Virus record (IMG/VR): IMGVR_UViG_2667527595_000014
From: a virus
Lineage: Duplodnaviria; Heunggongvirae; Uroviricota; Caudoviricetes
Length of the DNA: 5,324 bases
Direction: 5' to 3' (one strand)
Shown piece by piece: positions 1 to 5,301 of the stretch. The position numbers and the translations under genes were made by a program. The notes below the pieces were generated by a model. The model was given only the letters and a program-made list of their open reading frames with translations. It was not told the DNA's origin and did no database searches. Within the stretch, counting starts at the first letter, position 1; each line of letters begins with the position of its first letter.

Positions 1-3000
1 CGTTAATCGTGACGTTGTTGAGCGTCCCGGAATTCGCATTCACGTTACCGCTGATATCAGCATTTCTTGCGGTCAGCCTGCCCTCCGGCGTCAGGGAAAA
101 CGTCGGGGGATTGCCGGACGAGGTGATACTCACCGCAAACAGCCGCTTCAGGAACACATCGTTCATGAACAACTGATTCCCCTGCGCCACAAATAACGGC
201 GTGGTGTTGCCGTCCTCCGGGTTAATCATCGCAATACGGTCAGCCAGCAGCAGTATGTTGCTCAGGGGCTGGCCATCAGTATCCTCAATCCCCGCTCCAA
301 TACCGGCAACATAGGGTATGCCATTTTTTGTTTTCTGTACCTTCAGCATGTAAAGTGCAGCAAGGTCATCATTTGTGTCCTTCTGCACGCGCTGTATCTG
401 CTGTATGGTGGCGCTCTGGTCCTCCAGCGTTTTACTGACCGTCTGTGTGATTTCATTGCGGGTTTCTGTGATGGTGGTCTGCATTTCCGCCATCTCGTCC
501 TTCAGCTGACTGTTGTCAATCTCTGCCCACAGCGCCTCTGCCAGATGCGTTTTTCCTATCTTTTCCCGGAAAAGTTCCAGATAGCCCGCAGCATCATTGC
601 TCGCCCGTCCACTGGCTTCCACAAAAGCAGATTTACCCACCAGGTTGACGCTGCGCACATAAAACCAGAAATCCTTTCCGGGCTTAATGTGCGGGCCGGA
701 GACACTCCACTGACTGCCGGTCCCCAGATAACGGGCAGAGGTTTCCACCTGTGCGGCGTCTGCAATTTTTGCCTCCGAAAACCAGAACTCAAACTGCACC
801 GTCGGGTCATACACCGCAAGACGCGGTACCGCCGTTATCTGAAAATACCCCGGCGTCAGTTCAACACCGGCAGGCGCTGCCGGTGCGTTAATCCGGAACG
901 TGGTGGTGGCGGGTTCGCCCTGCTGGCCATAGCTGTTAATCGCCCTGACCGTCAGGGTGTATTCCCCGAGAGGCAGGCCACTGAAACGGTGCTCCGTATC
1001 GGCAGTGATGGCGGTGGTCAGCAGGCGGCTGTTCTCACCGCTTCCACTGGTCAGGCGCAGACTGAAGCGCACGCCCTTCACCACCCGCGGCGTGTCCCAT
1101 TTCGCCAGCGCCAGATACTGGCCGTCAGCTGCGCTCACCTCCACCGTCAGGTGCTGCACTGCCGGTGGGATAACGCTGTTCAGGGTGCCTGACTGCGGCT
1201 CAAAGCGGGCTCCGTTATCCACAATGGCTTCTTTTTCCGGTACGTGCTGCACTGCCGTGATGGCAAAGGTGCCGTCCGTGTTTTCCCGGATGGAGACACA
1301 GCGGAACAGGCGACGGCGCAGTGACGGCAGGGAGAGTCCCCACACCCCGTATGTCTCCACACCATCAGGCAGGGTACTGACCTGTATCCGGTCCGGCGCG
1401 GGGTGTGCGGTGATGTCCACACTCACCGGCTTACCGCTGCCGTTAATCAGGTTCACCGTCGATGTACCTGTCCCCGGAAGTGTCACTTCACGGTCCAGCG
1501 TCAGGGTGCGGGTGGCAGCATCAATGGACAGGACACGTCCGCCGGTCAGGGTTCCGGCATAGTCGTTATCACAGATTTCAATGATGTCACCGGGTGTGTG
1601 CCGCAGCCCCTGTGACCCGAGTGTGAAATCCACCGTCTGCGTTTCCAGCAGTTCTGTCTTTATCACCCACAGCCCGGCACGGTGGGCCTGACCGCGACTG
1701 GTGCAGCCGAACGCATCCATCTTCAGCAGGTTGCGTCCGTAGCGCAGTATGGCTTCCGGGTCTTCCACCAGTTCCGTGGAGGTCTGCCAGCCGTTCTGCG
1801 GGTCGGTGTAATTCACCTCCACCGCCGTGTGCCGGTCCTTCAGGGCACTGAAGCTGTAGCGGAACCCCACGCCGTTATCATCCACCACCACATCGCTGTT
1901 CGTGTACGGCCACACCACATCCGACTGGCGGTCCTGAACGAACGTCAGCGTCTGGCCGTTCCATACCGGCATACAGCGCATCGCCGAGCAGAAATCACTG
2001 AGAACGTCCCACGCCTTACGCTGTTGTGCCAGGTACGCATTAAAGGTCATCCGCGGCTCTGTGCCCCCGAAACCATCCGGGACCGTCTGGTCGCAGTACT
2101 GCCCGATGGCATACAGCGCCCACTTGTCCACATCCGCCGCCCCCAGGCGTTTTCCCATCCCGTAGCGCGGGTGAGTCAGCATGTCCCACAGGCACCAGGC
2201 CGGGTTGTTGCTGTATGCCGGTTTCAGACTGCCGTCCCAGATACCGCTGTAGGTGCGTTTTTCCGGGTCATAGTTTGACGGCACCTGGATGATGCGACCG
2301 CGGATATGGTAGTTCACCGTCATCTGCTGACCACCGAACTGCTCCGCATCCACCTGCAGCCCCACAATCGCCGTGTTCGGGTAGCACTGTTTCACATCGA
2401 TGATTTCGGTGTACGATGACCAGAGTGTTCTGTTCTGCAACTGGTCCGTGGTGCTGTCCGCCGTCTCCCGGACCATCCGGATGTTAAAAGGACGGGGAGG
2501 CAGATTATCCAGAATCACCGACGCCAGAAACTGCGAGGTGGTCTTGCCGTTAATGGTGACATCCTTTTCTGTCACCCAGTTACCGTTACGCTGTAACTGA
2601 ATCAGCAGGCGGACGGATGTCGGGTTTCGGTCACCCTTTGACGTGGTCTGCACCAGTGACTGCACCCCGAAGGTAACCCGCAGGCGGTCAATGTTCGCGG
2701 ACGTAATGGTGCGTGTCACCGGTTTTGCCTTCGTCACTTCCACACCCAGTACAGTTTCAGCTCCGGAGGACTCAAAGCCTTCCGGTGGTGTCTGCTCCTG
2801 CTCCCCGGCACGCCAGACGGCGGTCACACCGTGTATCACGGGATTACCGTCCGTGTCCGTCAGCGGGGTTTTGTTCACCAGAATACTCTGCAGTCCCTTC
2901 ACCGGACCTTCCACCGGTCCCTCACCAATGGCATCAATCACGCTCATCATCTGCGTGGATTTGAGATTATCCTTCGCCTCACGAGGTGTGTGCGCCTTGC

Positions 3001-3016
3001 CGCCACCTTTACCCAC
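1..3016 (-). CDS. J: Tail tip central fiber / host specificity protein J (gpJ homologue), 3'-truncated by window edge; ~1005 N-terminal codons present
   Basis: Manual reverse-complement translation from GTG at 3016..3014 gives [52 protein letters not shown]..., which I recognise as the lambda gpJ N-terminus ([21 protein letters not shown]...). The frame stayed open and lambda-J-like through my read to position 2 (e.g. ...[39 protein letters not shown]..., ...[30 protein letters not shown]..., ...[13 protein letters not shown]...). Shine-Dalgarno-like AGGAGAGGGGG at 3022..3032 (minus), 5 nt upstream of GTG. Absent from the ORF track, presumably because no stop lies in the window. Position downstream of I matches lambda gene order. 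Confidence 0.92.
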
Positions 3017-3055
3017 TCTGTCCCCCTCTCCTGTCTGATGTCTGAATCTGTTTAT

Positions 3056-3090
3056 GCCCAAAAAACAACAGGCACCCCGGAGGGTGCCTG
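3056..3090 (-). terminator. Rho-independent terminator on minus strand, between the small ORF and J
   Basis: Perfect 9-bp GC-rich inverted repeat CAGGCACCC (3069..3077) / GGGTGCCTG (3082..3090) with a 4-nt loop. On the minus strand the stem is followed directly by TTGTTTTTTGGG (plus 3056..3068). Lies 2 nt after the stop of the 31-codon ORF and about 40 nt upstream of the J start. Confidence 0.6.
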
Positions 3091-3092
3091 CA

Positions 3093-3188
3093 TCATGACG
3101 GAATAAAAATTCTGAATATCTTCACATTTTCACAAACTGACTGTGGCGCGTATAATTTCGCTGCGTTAGTGTTTTTTTGCCGTGACAT
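3093..3188 (-). CDS. Hypothetical small protein, 31 aa ([31 protein letters not shown]), moron-like ORF in the I-J spacer
   Basis: ATG at 3188..3186, TGA at 3095..3093. Canonical SD AAGGAG (plus 3199..3204) 10 nt upstream of the ATG. Stop is followed at once by the minus-strand terminator. Too short for codon-usage judgement and no homologue recognised. Start and SD sit inside an inverted repeat (3166..3173 / 3205..3212). Confidence 0.3.
3129..3156 (+). promoter_or_regulatory. Candidate sigma70-type promoter on the plus strand (antisense to the tail operon)
   Basis: -35-like TTCACA (3129..3134), 16-nt spacer, consensus -10 TATAAT (3151..3156). Predicted transcription start about 3162..3164. 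Located in an AT-rich intergenic island, facing away from J and toward the plus-strand terminator at 3232..3270. Confidence 0.4.
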
Positions 3189-3268
3189 AAAAAAACAACT
3201 CCTTAACACTAATCTTCATTTGTCCGAATCTCCCGCAGCTCCGCGATCACTGCGGGATTTTTTATTCT
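3163..3268 (+). ncRNA. Candidate ~100-nt small RNA, cis-antisense to the SD and start codon of the 31-codon ORF and to the I-J spacer
   Basis: Bounded by the predicted promoter (3129..3156) and the plus-strand intrinsic terminator (3232..3270). Contains an internal imperfect hairpin: TTAGTGTT (3166..3173) pairs with AACACTAA (3205..3212), with T-run/A-run complementarity inside. No convincing plus-strand ORF; the track ORF 3169..3417 runs through the terminator hairpin and is antisense to gene I. Ends are predictions, not mapped. Confidence 0.3.
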
Positions 3269-3270
3269 TT
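3232..3270 (+). terminator. Rho-independent terminator on plus strand, abutting the stop codon of gene I
   Basis: Inverted repeat CCCGCAG (3232..3238) / CTGCGGG (3250..3256), extendable by a T:A pair at 3231/3257, with an 11-nt loop. Followed on the plus strand by ATTTTTTATTCTTTTT (3257..3272). On the minus strand there is no U-tract after the stem, so it is directional for plus-strand transcripts only. The loop is rather long, which lowers confidence. Confidence 0.5.
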
Positions 3271-3951
3271 TTACCCCTGCCGTCCGATAACCACCACTTT
3301 CCCGCCCCCGCCTTCATCACGGGTACTGATGTCCTGGGATATACGGCGGGAGCCAACCAGCATTTCCCCGTAAGGCACCGGCATCGGGTTACCCTGGGCA
3401 ATCATGTTGTCCAGTGACGAAAAGTACGTGTTCTGTCTGCCGTTATCCGTTGCGCGGTAATCCGGTGTTTTTGCCTTCGGGGCCAGCATCTGGGCCACAC
3501 CGCCCAGAATCATACTGGCACCCAGTGAAAACAGCATCGTGGTGGCAGAAAAACCACCGGCTGCCAGGGCTGAACCCCATAACGCCATTGATGCTCCGGC
3601 AGTGAAGAAAGACCCCACAATGGCAGCTGCCCCCAGCACAATCTGTAGTCCGCCCTTTCCGGCCCCGGCCAGTCGCGGCACAATATGGATAACCGTTCCC
3701 TCACCCAGTGGTTCGTGAAGGCGGGCATACACCGCCTCCGGTGCCGTATCCTCACCGGCAATGCGTATCTGGTACCAGCCTTCGTTCATCTGACGGCGAA
3801 AGCCCGGCACCTGCAGCGACAGGGCGCGGATGGCTTCCGCCGCCGTGTTCACATACAGGCTGAAGCGGCGGCCAAATCGTTGTAAATCCCCGTGAAGGCA
3901 GATGCGTGCCAGTGGCGGTGACGCCAGACAGAATGCGTTCGTCGTTGCCAT
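3271..3951 (-). CDS. I: Tail tip assembly protein I (gpI homologue), 226 aa
   Basis: ORF-track protein MATTNAFCLASPPLARICLHGDLQRFGRRF...GEMLVGSRRISQDISTRDEGGGGKVVVIGRQG is, by my recollection, closely similar to lambda gpI (223 aa), including the ARICLYGDLQRFGRR-type N-terminus and a Gly/Ala-rich hydrophobic central segment. ATG at 3951..3949, TAA at 3273..3271. Overlaps the 3' end of K by 103 nt out of frame, as in lambda. Confidence 0.92.
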   Translation of the reverse strand: MATTNAFCLASPPLARICLHGDLQRFGRRFSLYVNTAAEAIRALSLQVPGFRRQMNEGWYQIRIAGEDTAPEAVYARLHEPLGEGTVIHIVPRLAGAGKGGLQIVLGAAAIVGSFFTAGASMALWGSALAAGGFSATTMLFSLGASMILGGVAQMLAPKAKTPDYRATDNGRQNTYFSSLDNMIAQGNPMPVPYGEMLVGSRRISQDISTRDEGGGGKVVVIGRQG

Positions 3952-4592
3952 TTTTCGGAATACCTCTCCCGTTTACTCAGTTGTTCAGGCAGATGGTGAA
4001 GCAGTTCACCGTTGCCGCAGTAAATGGCGGCATGATTAGCCACCGATGCGCCGAAGCAGCACAGCAGGATATCGCCCGGCAGTGCAGAGGACAGGGGCAC
4101 CCGGTAAAAGCCCGTTTCCTCCATATTGTCCAGGTAAAGGTTCTGACCGTTGCACCACCAGTCATCCTCACGGTGAAAATCCGGCATATCAATGCCTGCC
4201 AGATGGTATGCATCCCGGAACAGCGTGTAACAGTCCGTCACCCCGTGCGCAAAGCGCCGTCCTGTCAGATGTGGCACACAGCGGAATTTGTGAATGTCAC
4301 CCCGGCTGACCAGCCACCAGGGCAGTGCGCTTTTTATCTGCAGCCGCCGGTCAGCCTCGCTCAGCCAGGGCAGACCACCGGGATGACTGTGGACCAGTGC
4401 CACAATCTCCCCCTGCATCTCTGCCCGCAGCCAGTCTTCCGGTGCGATACGAAAATACGCCTCAGGCTCTGCAGAGATATTCACGCACGGCTGGTACTGG
4501 TTGCCCTCCGGCGTGCTTATCACGAAGCCGCACGACTCCGCAGGCGCACACCGCCGGGCATGCGCCAGAATCGCTGATTCAGTCTGTGTCAT
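3849..4592 (-). CDS. K: Tail tip assembly protein K (gpK homologue), predicted 247 aa, with JAB/MPN (JAMM) and NlpC/P60 domains
   Basis: Open frame 3849..4853. The upstream 87 codons overlap L and are rejected. ATG at 4592..4590 (MTQTESAILAHARRCAPAESCGF...) begins 10 nt after the L stop and keeps the N-terminal JAB-like segment. JAMM signature H-x-H-x7-S-x2-D present as HSHPGGLPWLSEAD (codons at 4350..4391). NlpC/P60-like Cys in GVTDCYTL (Cys codon 4230..4232) and His in NHAAIY / ELLHH. No strong SD before 4592, so the start is less certain than the gene identity. TGA at 3851..3849. Confidence 0.85.
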   Translation of the reverse strand: MTQTESAILAHARRCAPAESCGFVISTPEGNQYQPCVNISAEPEAYFRIAPEDWLRAEMQGEIVALVHSHPGGLPWLSEADRRLQIKSALPWWLVSRGDIHKFRCVPHLTGRRFAHGVTDCYTLFRDAYHLAGIDMPDFHREDDWWCNGQNLYLDNMEETGFYRVPLSSALPGDILLCCFGASVANHAAIYCGNGELLHHLPEQLSKRERYSEKWQRRTHSVWRHRHWHASAFTGIYNDLAAASACM

Positions 4593-4602
4593 AAACCGGG
4601 AT

Positions 4603-5301
4603 TTACTGCGAAAGTTTATTAATGGAAAGGAAACCGCCAAAATTGCCGACATTCCTGCGCAGTTCACACCCGCGCATGCACTTGCTGCATCTGTCCTTAC
4701 GGATATCCGTGGTGGGTTTATCGAACTCATCCGCCACAGCCCCGCCCGTGTAACCACACTCATCAGAGCGGTAGGTCCACATACAGGTGTTCGCCAGCAT
4801 GATACGACCGGGAAACAGCGCCCCGTCCGTCTCGGTCGGTGTGGCCAGCACAAACGAGGCCGTCATGGCTGTCAGCTGCGACATCTGCTCCACCACCCAG
4901 CGGTCACTCAGCTCCTGCTCCGGGTCCGCTTCCGGATTGCCCGCAACGAAATTCACCGCATCCAGAAAACGGGCATACACCCGGCGGCGGACCACCGTGG
5001 CCCCCACCAGGCTCTGCAAATCCTCCGCCATTCCGGTGACAAGACCAAACAGATTGGACACCGTCAGCAACGGTCTGGCACTGCTGCCCTTCCCGCTCAT
5101 CTCAAAACCGCTACCGTCAATCGGGTATGCCTGATATTGCCGCCCCTGCCAGGTGACCGGCTCCCCTTTTTCATTCAGCTCATTGCAGAAAAAATACCGC
5201 TCACCGCCCTGCACCGTCAGGTCGATTTCCCAGAGCACCACCCGCGGTGACTGCTCTGATTTAACCGACTCGTTCAGACTTTCTTCGTGAATATCCTGCA
5301 T
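4603..5301 (-). CDS. L: Tail tip protein L (gpL homologue), 232 aa
   Basis: Translation MQDIHEESLNESVKSEQSPRVVLWEIDLTVQGGERYFFCNELNEKGEPVTWQGRQYQ...NVGNFGGFLSINKLSQ is recognised as closely similar to lambda gpL, which I recall as 232 aa beginning MQDI. ATG at 5301..5299 chosen over the track's upstream ATG at 5313 because it matches the lambda N-terminus and length. TAA at 4605..4603. C-terminal Cys cluster (C173, C182, C205, C208, C212) present. Confidence 0.93.
   Translation of the reverse strand: MQDIHEESLNESVKSEQSPRVVLWEIDLTVQGGERYFFCNELNEKGEPVTWQGRQYQAYPIDGSGFEMSGKGSSARPLLTVSNLFGLVTGMAEDLQSLVGATVVRRRVYARFLDAVNFVAGNPEADPEQELSDRWVVEQMSQLTAMTASFVLATPTETDGALFPGRIMLANTCMWTYRSDECGYTGGAVADEFDKPTTDIRKDRCSKCMRGCELRRNVGNFGGFLSINKLSQ

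Follow-up and report, generated by a model that had tools for sequence, protein, structure and literature searches.

A late-sense terminator-shaped hairpin before tail gene J adjoins the small RNA gene PasB and has counterparts at the I-J junctions of other lambda-like phages

The DNA analysed here (the window) is a stretch of 5,324 nt from the Caudoviricetes record IMGVR_UViG_2667527595_000014, and it carries part of a lambda-like tail operon on the minus strand (Table 1). Genes were assigned by comparison with Escherichia coli NCTC9112 (99.3% identical over the spacer), phage PhiR12_1 (95%), and E2348/69, and the N-terminus of the J product, MGKGGGK..., matched the annotated gpJ of all three. 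Homologs of gene I that were 96-100% identical were present in 80 IMG/VR loci, and in RefSeq relatives a shorter form of the gene, equivalent to 3271-3852, is annotated. The spacer between I and J covers 3017-3270 (254 nt). Between the terminator and the ribosome-binding site of J, the heptamer CAGACAT (window 3030-3050, minus strand) occurs in one to four copies among relatives.

Table 1 Features of the window, listed from its left end
Feature	Position	Strand	Details
Gene J, 5' part (tail tip / host specificity)	1-3016	minus	start GTG 3016-3014; runs off the left end of the window
J leader	3017-3056	minus	GGAGAGGGGGA Shine-Dalgarno region and CAGACAT repeat; read from the sequence
Intrinsic terminator, late (tail-gene) sense	3057-3091	minus	stem 3091-3082 / 3077-3068, loop UCCG 3081-3078, tail UGUUUUUU 3067-3060, then GGG
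A+T-rich block	3092-3128	plus	nearly invariant, upstream of the PasB promoter; contains TCTGAATATCTTCACA (3111-3126)
PasB promoter	3129-3156	plus	TTCACA, 16-nt spacer, TATAAT; 11/12 matches; also called in a class B locus
PasB sRNA gene, EcOnc22-24 family	3163-3263	plus	antisense to the tail operon; 5' end predicted from the -10 element
PasB own terminator	3232-3263	plus	CCCGCAG / CTGCGGG stem and six U; ends 8 nt from the I stop codon
Gene I (tail assembly protein)	3271-3951	minus	TAA stop 3273-3271; match to annotated records
Gene K	~3849-4592	minus	match to annotated near-identical records
Gene L	~4603-5301	minus	match to annotated near-identical records

The hairpin nearest to J is formed by the arms GCAGGCACCC (5', 3091-3082) and GGGUGCCUGU (3', 3077-3068), which make 10 pairs, nine of them Watson-Crick and the outer one G.U, with G-C at 7/10; its GC content is 62%. 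The U-tract stands directly 3' of the stem on the minus strand and ends 43 nt before the GTG of J, and together with the GGG the tail occupies 3067-3057. Folding of the RNA from 3100 to 3050 gave -22.5 kcal/mol with a z-score of -3.45, a stability that was reached by one of 200 dinucleotide shuffles. In a scan of the window, this hairpin was the best of 9 terminator-like matches, the remainder being weak and located within coding sequence. As 4.8 matches are expected by chance from such a loose scan, the hairpin is notable for its quality and not for the number of matches. A G+C-rich stem in the range of about 5-14 bp with a short loop, an adjacent U-tract, and above-chance stability with conserved pairing, which are the marks of an intrinsic terminator, were thus all found here. 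Judged from the sequence, the hairpin is a genuine canonical Rho-independent terminator in shape, and we infer that it terminates transcription in vivo. On the plus strand, the stem is followed by CATCATGAC, which holds no T-run, indicating that the hairpin is one-directional and of the late sense only; the A- and T-tracts that flank the stem of a bidirectional terminator were not found at the window hairpin. A sequence-only reading had placed a strong terminator in the late direction about 40 nt before J, and the stem, the U-tract, the fold, and the 43-nt distance bear this out.

To see how the module is kept in its own family, we searched IMG/VR with a degenerate pattern and obtained 120 places. 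The module lay 35-60 nt before the J start in 118 of them, and in the other two the sequence ends short of J. It followed the PasB promoter block in 117/120, the rest including a locus disrupted by an insertion sequence and a locus too short to contain the block. Stem pair 8 was C-G in 65 places, U-A in 42, U.G in 11, and C.A in 2. Over the 17 distinct sequences, 98% of the cells were paired, and the observed covariation was reached in 7 of 500 shuffles. Since the covariation concerns a single stem pair, the evidence from within the family is modest. After the same hairpin, relatives carry at least three alternative J leaders.

The insert that shares the spacer with the hairpin could be identified from published data. 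The northern probe for PasB, an EPEC sRNA (Table S6 of Pearl Mizrahi et al. 2021, PMC8550237), has the sequence AATCCCGCAGTGATCGCGGAGCT, which is the exact reverse complement of window 3237-3259. In E2348/69, PasB (NC_011601, 1466343..1466261) is flanked by the same I and J genes and is antisense to them, and the I-J region of the window shares 88% mean column identity with that locus. The RNA-seq-based 5' end of E2348/69 PasB maps to about 3178 of the window. Relatives contain compensated variants of the stem of the PasB terminator, for example CCCACAG...CTGTGGG.

In EHEC Sakai, EcOnc22, 23, and 24 are sRNAs of about 85 nt detected by Hfq-CRAC and destabilised without Hfq (Tree et al. 2014, PMC4104026, Table S2). 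We found that they map to the I-J spacers of the prophages Sp15, Sp14, and Sp11, where they are encoded antisense to the tail genes and fall within PasB homologs. This mapping needs a shift of about +135 from NC_002695.1 to NC_002695.2, which was calibrated on the 3' end of StxS (2,925,944 to 2,926,079) and on AgvB. With the coordinates of NC_002695.1 taken as they stand, EcOnc22 had appeared to be an RNA overlapping the hairpin; the shift rules this out and places EcOnc22-24 inside the PasB homologs. Once it is applied, EcOnc22-24 are the Sakai copies of PasB, and the insert of the window is the already published Hfq-dependent sRNA PasB/EcOnc22-24. An EPEC table of EHEC homologues has entries for PasA and PasD and none for PasB. 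When the window and related loci were scanned against Rfam 15, no family was found, and a lone weak snoRNA match was regarded as noise; PasB is absent from Rfam 15, which explains why family scans of the window return nothing.

PasB also has the properties of a moron, an element that by definition brings a promoter and a terminator of its own (Juhala et al. 2000; Cumby et al. 2012, PMC3594210). Besides these two signals, it is extra DNA between late genes, with a 254-nt spacer here vs 60 nt in lambda and 42-54 nt in phi80-type junctions, and its base composition is deviant, the cassette having 38.5% GC vs 58-60% in the flanking I, J, and K-L. PasB homologs have been detected by northern blot in lysogens (PMC8550237; PMC4104026). 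The prediction that the hairpin borders a moron-type insert was correct, and in phi80 the record gives the equivalent hairpin as the terminator of a late-sense moron, MorF. The hairpin as the terminator of PasB itself was ruled out, because the two are on different strands and the hairpin precedes the PasB promoter.

The A+T-rich block upstream of this promoter is kept in all spacer classes described below as far as ...TTTTAT, the point at which the classes diverge; it is the most conserved part of the spacer and may be an UP element. It contains TCTGAATATCTTCACA, a 9/10 match to the CRP consensus TGTGA-N6-TCACA, whose centre lies about 44.5 nt before the predicted start of PasB. This putative CRP site may relate to the higher PasB level reported in non-activating medium.

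Some phage records give a different content for the spacer. On the minus strand, a 31-aa ORF with an AAGGAG Shine-Dalgarno sequence runs from an ATG at 3188 to a TGA at 3093, ending at the terminator, and is annotated as hypothetical in PhiR12_1. The ATG is absent in E2348/69 and most variants, and in others a stop follows after 6 codons. As the start is absent or the stop early in most related spacers, this ORF is probably not a gene.

We compared the I-J spacers of the 80 loci in which gpI was at least 96% identical, and they fell into three classes. Class A, the type of the window, measures 234-260 nt and combines the PasB cassette with the window hairpin and a J leader of one of three or more kinds. 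The commonest is class B (338-344 nt), which has the same PasB cassette as far as ...TTTTAT, followed by unrelated sequence with a different, 13-bp hairpin. In class C (about 850 nt; loci L039 and L080), the PasB promoter is replaced by a sodC-like gene that lies on the PasB strand shortly before the PasB body; there, PasB may form the 3' end of the sodC transcript. The mosaic breakpoints fell exactly at both edges of the hairpin module, that is, after ...TTTTAT and after the T-run that precedes the J leaders. No late-sense terminator was found before J in the class C relatives. That some relatives are without a clear late-sense terminator indicates that the terminator, although common and conserved among enterobacterial lambda-like lineages, is useful but dispensable.

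The 13-bp hairpin of class B, AAACCCCGGTATC...GATACCGGGGTTT (locus L018, 1950-2090), has T-rich tracts on both sides; interruptions in its U-tracts kept the terminator scan from calling it. Upstream of it, on the PasB strand, is a promoter-like site (TTGCCA-18-TATCCT), and a further small antisense RNA may be encoded between PasB and J. In one further relative (L112), an IS3-family element, recognised from the start of its transposase OrfA, replaces the PasB body, and the promoter block, the hairpin, and J are retained.

Whether a hairpin of this kind stands before J in other lineages was examined with a strict terminator rule on 12 junction types. In the late sense, 11 of the 12 had such a terminator and in the antisense none, with 0.1/12 expected from dinucleotide shuffles, and the stems were unrelated in sequence between lineages. 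The 60-nt I-J spacer of lambda, which reads ...gaaACCGCCtgcgGGCGGTtttgtcatttATGGAGcgtgaggaATG, contains the hairpin ACCGCC-TGCG-GGCGGT followed by TTTGTCATTT, and this is kept, with variants of loop and tail, in 80 lambda-type loci. Modules of Enterobacter, Pseudocitrobacter, Rahnella, Pantoea, and the phi80/mEp043 type, whose gpI is 34-45% identical, have spacers of 42-55 nt with at least 8 different stems, in which a run of six to seven T comes after the hairpin and precedes the ribosome-binding site of J. In the T1-like virulent phage IME-JL8, AGCCCGC-CTTG-CGCGGG and eight T come after gene I, followed by a TATAAT-like element. Cargo-bearing junctions of the phi80 type have a late-sense lipoprotein gene between the I stop codon and a hairpin. 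In one phi80 record the MorF moron is annotated at this place; its listed features are a promoter, the start of transcription, and, 7 nt before J, a putative rho-independent terminator. Hairpins of this kind also occur at cargo-free junctions (lambda and the phi80-type 42-nt spacers), indicating that the hairpin predates the insert. It is not universal to phages with I and J: in Mannheimia, Moraxella, Burkholderia, and Serratia phages the two genes abut or overlap, and no hairpin was found between them.

Of these counterparts, the MorF terminator of phi80 (GenBank FN582354.1, 16718-16746, between gene 20 (I) and gene 21 (J)) resembles the window hairpin in its position, its orientation, its combination of hairpin and T-run, and the cargo that adjoins it after I. 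However, the two have no sequence similarity, and they lie 7 and 43 nt from J, respectively. Their cargo also differs, as that of phi80 is a late-sense lipoprotein gene that ends at the hairpin, whereas the PasB gene occupies the other strand and is closed by a terminator of its own. The lambda hairpin (NC_001416, ~15466-15495, unannotated) is alike in its place, its orientation, its GC-rich stem with a tetraloop, its T-rich tail, and its setting in a Q-antiterminated late operon. It differs in a stem of 6-8 bp, an interrupted T-run (TTTTGTCATTT), and a cargo-free spacer, and a simple scan did not call it. PasB (PMC8550237), which is EcOnc22/23/24 (PMC4104026), is the neighbour of the hairpin in the same spacer but a distinct object, located on the plus strand at 3163-3263 with its own terminator.

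A late-sense intrinsic terminator is also present in tR', downstream of PR' in lambdoid phages, which is overridden by Q-modified polymerase, forms the 3' end of StxS / lambda 6S RNA, and delimits transcription in the lysogen (PMC7547250). It is a few hundred nt from PR' and yields an abundant short RNA, whereas the window hairpin lies many kilobases downstream, with no known lysogen promoter or RNA product. The literature searched gave no usable 3' end data for the site in the window and no experimentally described lambda I-J terminator. In the late operon of lambda (NC_001416), terminator-shaped hairpins occur at E-FI (7163-7180), I-J (15466-15495), J-lom (18920-18935), and after lom (19612-19633), none of them annotated in the stretches of the RefSeq record that were viewed.

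Terminators inside Q-antiterminated late operons and at the borders of morons are established. The hairpin of the window is probably the Rho-independent terminator of the I-J boundary and not that of the inserted sRNA, stopping polymerase without Q and being read through with Q. In a lysogen, polymerase without the Q modification that arrives in the late sense via I or the cargo slot would release its transcript at 3060-3067, and J would not be transcribed. After induction, Q-modified polymerase from PR' would read through, and the hairpin would become part of the J leader. Read-through by Q-modified polymerase is established lambda biology, as summarised in PMC7547250. From textbook lambda biology it also follows that J expression would depend on antitermination, as the sequence-only reading predicted. 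A terminator that was already in place would, moreover, make the I-J junction a tolerant landing site for cargo expressed in the lysogen. The known cargo, namely PasB, the lipoprotein gene, and sodC, sits between the I stop codon and the J-proximal side of this slot, and the hairpin follows in the case of PasB and of the lipoprotein gene. For late-sense cargo such as MorF, the J-proximal hairpin doubles as the terminator of the cargo, which is not so for PasB. In RNA-seq of E2348/69, the normalised counts (DESeq-style base mean) were about 5-15 for I and J and 480-1080 for PasB.

It had also been suggested that the hairpin acts as an insulator that lets the insert be expressed without making J. 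This did not hold for PasB, which is on the other strand, is transcribed away from J, and has its own promoter and its own terminator by the I stop codon, so that the hairpin is not needed to express the insert without making J. A scan of the window for sigma-70-like promoters called none on the minus strand, and as PasB is transcribed away from J, no source of late-sense, Q-unmodified transcription was identified in the window. The possibility of a late-sense promoter, either within the conserved block or divergent to the -10 element of PasB, was considered and rejected; by eye, the candidates had only 2-4/6 matches per hexamer, and the scan called none.

Other explanations of the hairpin were weighed against its action as a boundary terminator. 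It could serve the late mRNA as a processing or stability element, protecting the 3' end of the ...K-I segment or the 5' end of the J mRNA after cleavage in the spacer, possibly by RNase III on a duplex of PasB and late mRNA. The late transcript necessarily holds the perfect complement of PasB just upstream of the hairpin, the hairpin persists at cargo-free junctions, and in lambda a comparable hairpin follows directly on the major capsid gene E (7163-7180), all of which would suit such an element. However, what all the lineages retain is a hairpin with a T-run directly behind it. Such a T-run marks termination, and an exonuclease barrier does not need one. The spacing between the T-run and the ribosome-binding site of J is also variable, from about 0 to 40 nt. 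We consider a role in mRNA processing or stability unlikely. The exact coincidence of the mosaic breakpoints with the edges of the module would, on the other hand, suit a relic or recombination joint left by past gain and loss of morons at a mosaic boundary, with no role under current selection. Consistent with a relic are the phi80-type hairpins, which differ between cargo-bearing and cargo-free junctions, and class C, which is entirely without the hairpin. A relic would be expected to decay, yet in many lineages pairing of the stems persists through compensatory differences and the T-runs are intact, and none of the junctions has the reverse orientation. Such an origin would thus have a small chance of accounting for what is observed.

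The weakest of the three rivals is that the hairpin forms the 3' end of a small RNA of the late strand, which would start in the A+T-rich block or would be an anti-PasB sponge derived from unmodified late-sense transcription or the 3'UTR of I. A hairpin with a U-tail is the usual Hfq-binding module, the sequence upstream of it, AUUUUUAUUCCGUCAUGA, is single-stranded, A/U-rich, and conserved, and any late-sense RNA that ends at the hairpin is fully complementary to PasB. Nevertheless, no sigma-70-like promoter was called on the minus strand, the Hfq-CRAC peaks at the three Sakai spacers (Sp15, Sp14, and Sp11) are those of EcOnc22-24 only, antisense to the tail genes, and no RNA of the I 3'UTR or the I-J intergenic region is among the EPEC RIL-seq entries listed; the CRAC and RIL-seq negatives rest on published lists from a few growth conditions. 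For these reasons, the suggestion that the hairpin is the 3' end of a spacer sRNA, which had been made from the sequence alone, is very unlikely.

The reading as a Rho-independent terminator of the I-J boundary can be extended to the evolution of the operon. Rather than a by-product of morons, the terminator might be a checkpoint that is ancestral to enterobacterial lambda-like tail operons and under selection in them; it would make J strictly Q-dependent and provide a safe slot that different lineages repeatedly filled with lysogen cargo (PasB, the MorF-type lipoprotein, and SodC). This extension is tentative and, in our judgement, somewhat doubtful. In a sharper variant of it, late-sense RNA ending at the hairpin would be a natural anti-PasB sponge. 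If the reading as a boundary terminator is right, it would explain why lysogenic-conversion cargo has landed repeatedly at the I-J junction of E. coli prophages, Stx phages among them, as cargo upstream of a ready-made terminator could be expressed in the lysogen without switching on the tail-tip gene.

The hairpin in itself opens no new mechanism and is a correct but ordinary finding. What the analysis contributes is the identity of the insert as PasB/EcOnc22-24, the rejection of the small ORF, and the recurrence before J, in lambda-like phages including lambda, of a late-sense terminator that is older than the cargo. The spacer should accordingly be annotated with PasB/EcOnc22, an sRNA, as its functional insert, in place of the 31-codon ORF of some phage records. 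Near-identical E. coli prophage I-J sequence was also present on short contigs labelled Streptomyces flavalbus, Parendozoicomonas haliclonae, and a Clostridiales MAG, most likely as a result of assembly contamination.
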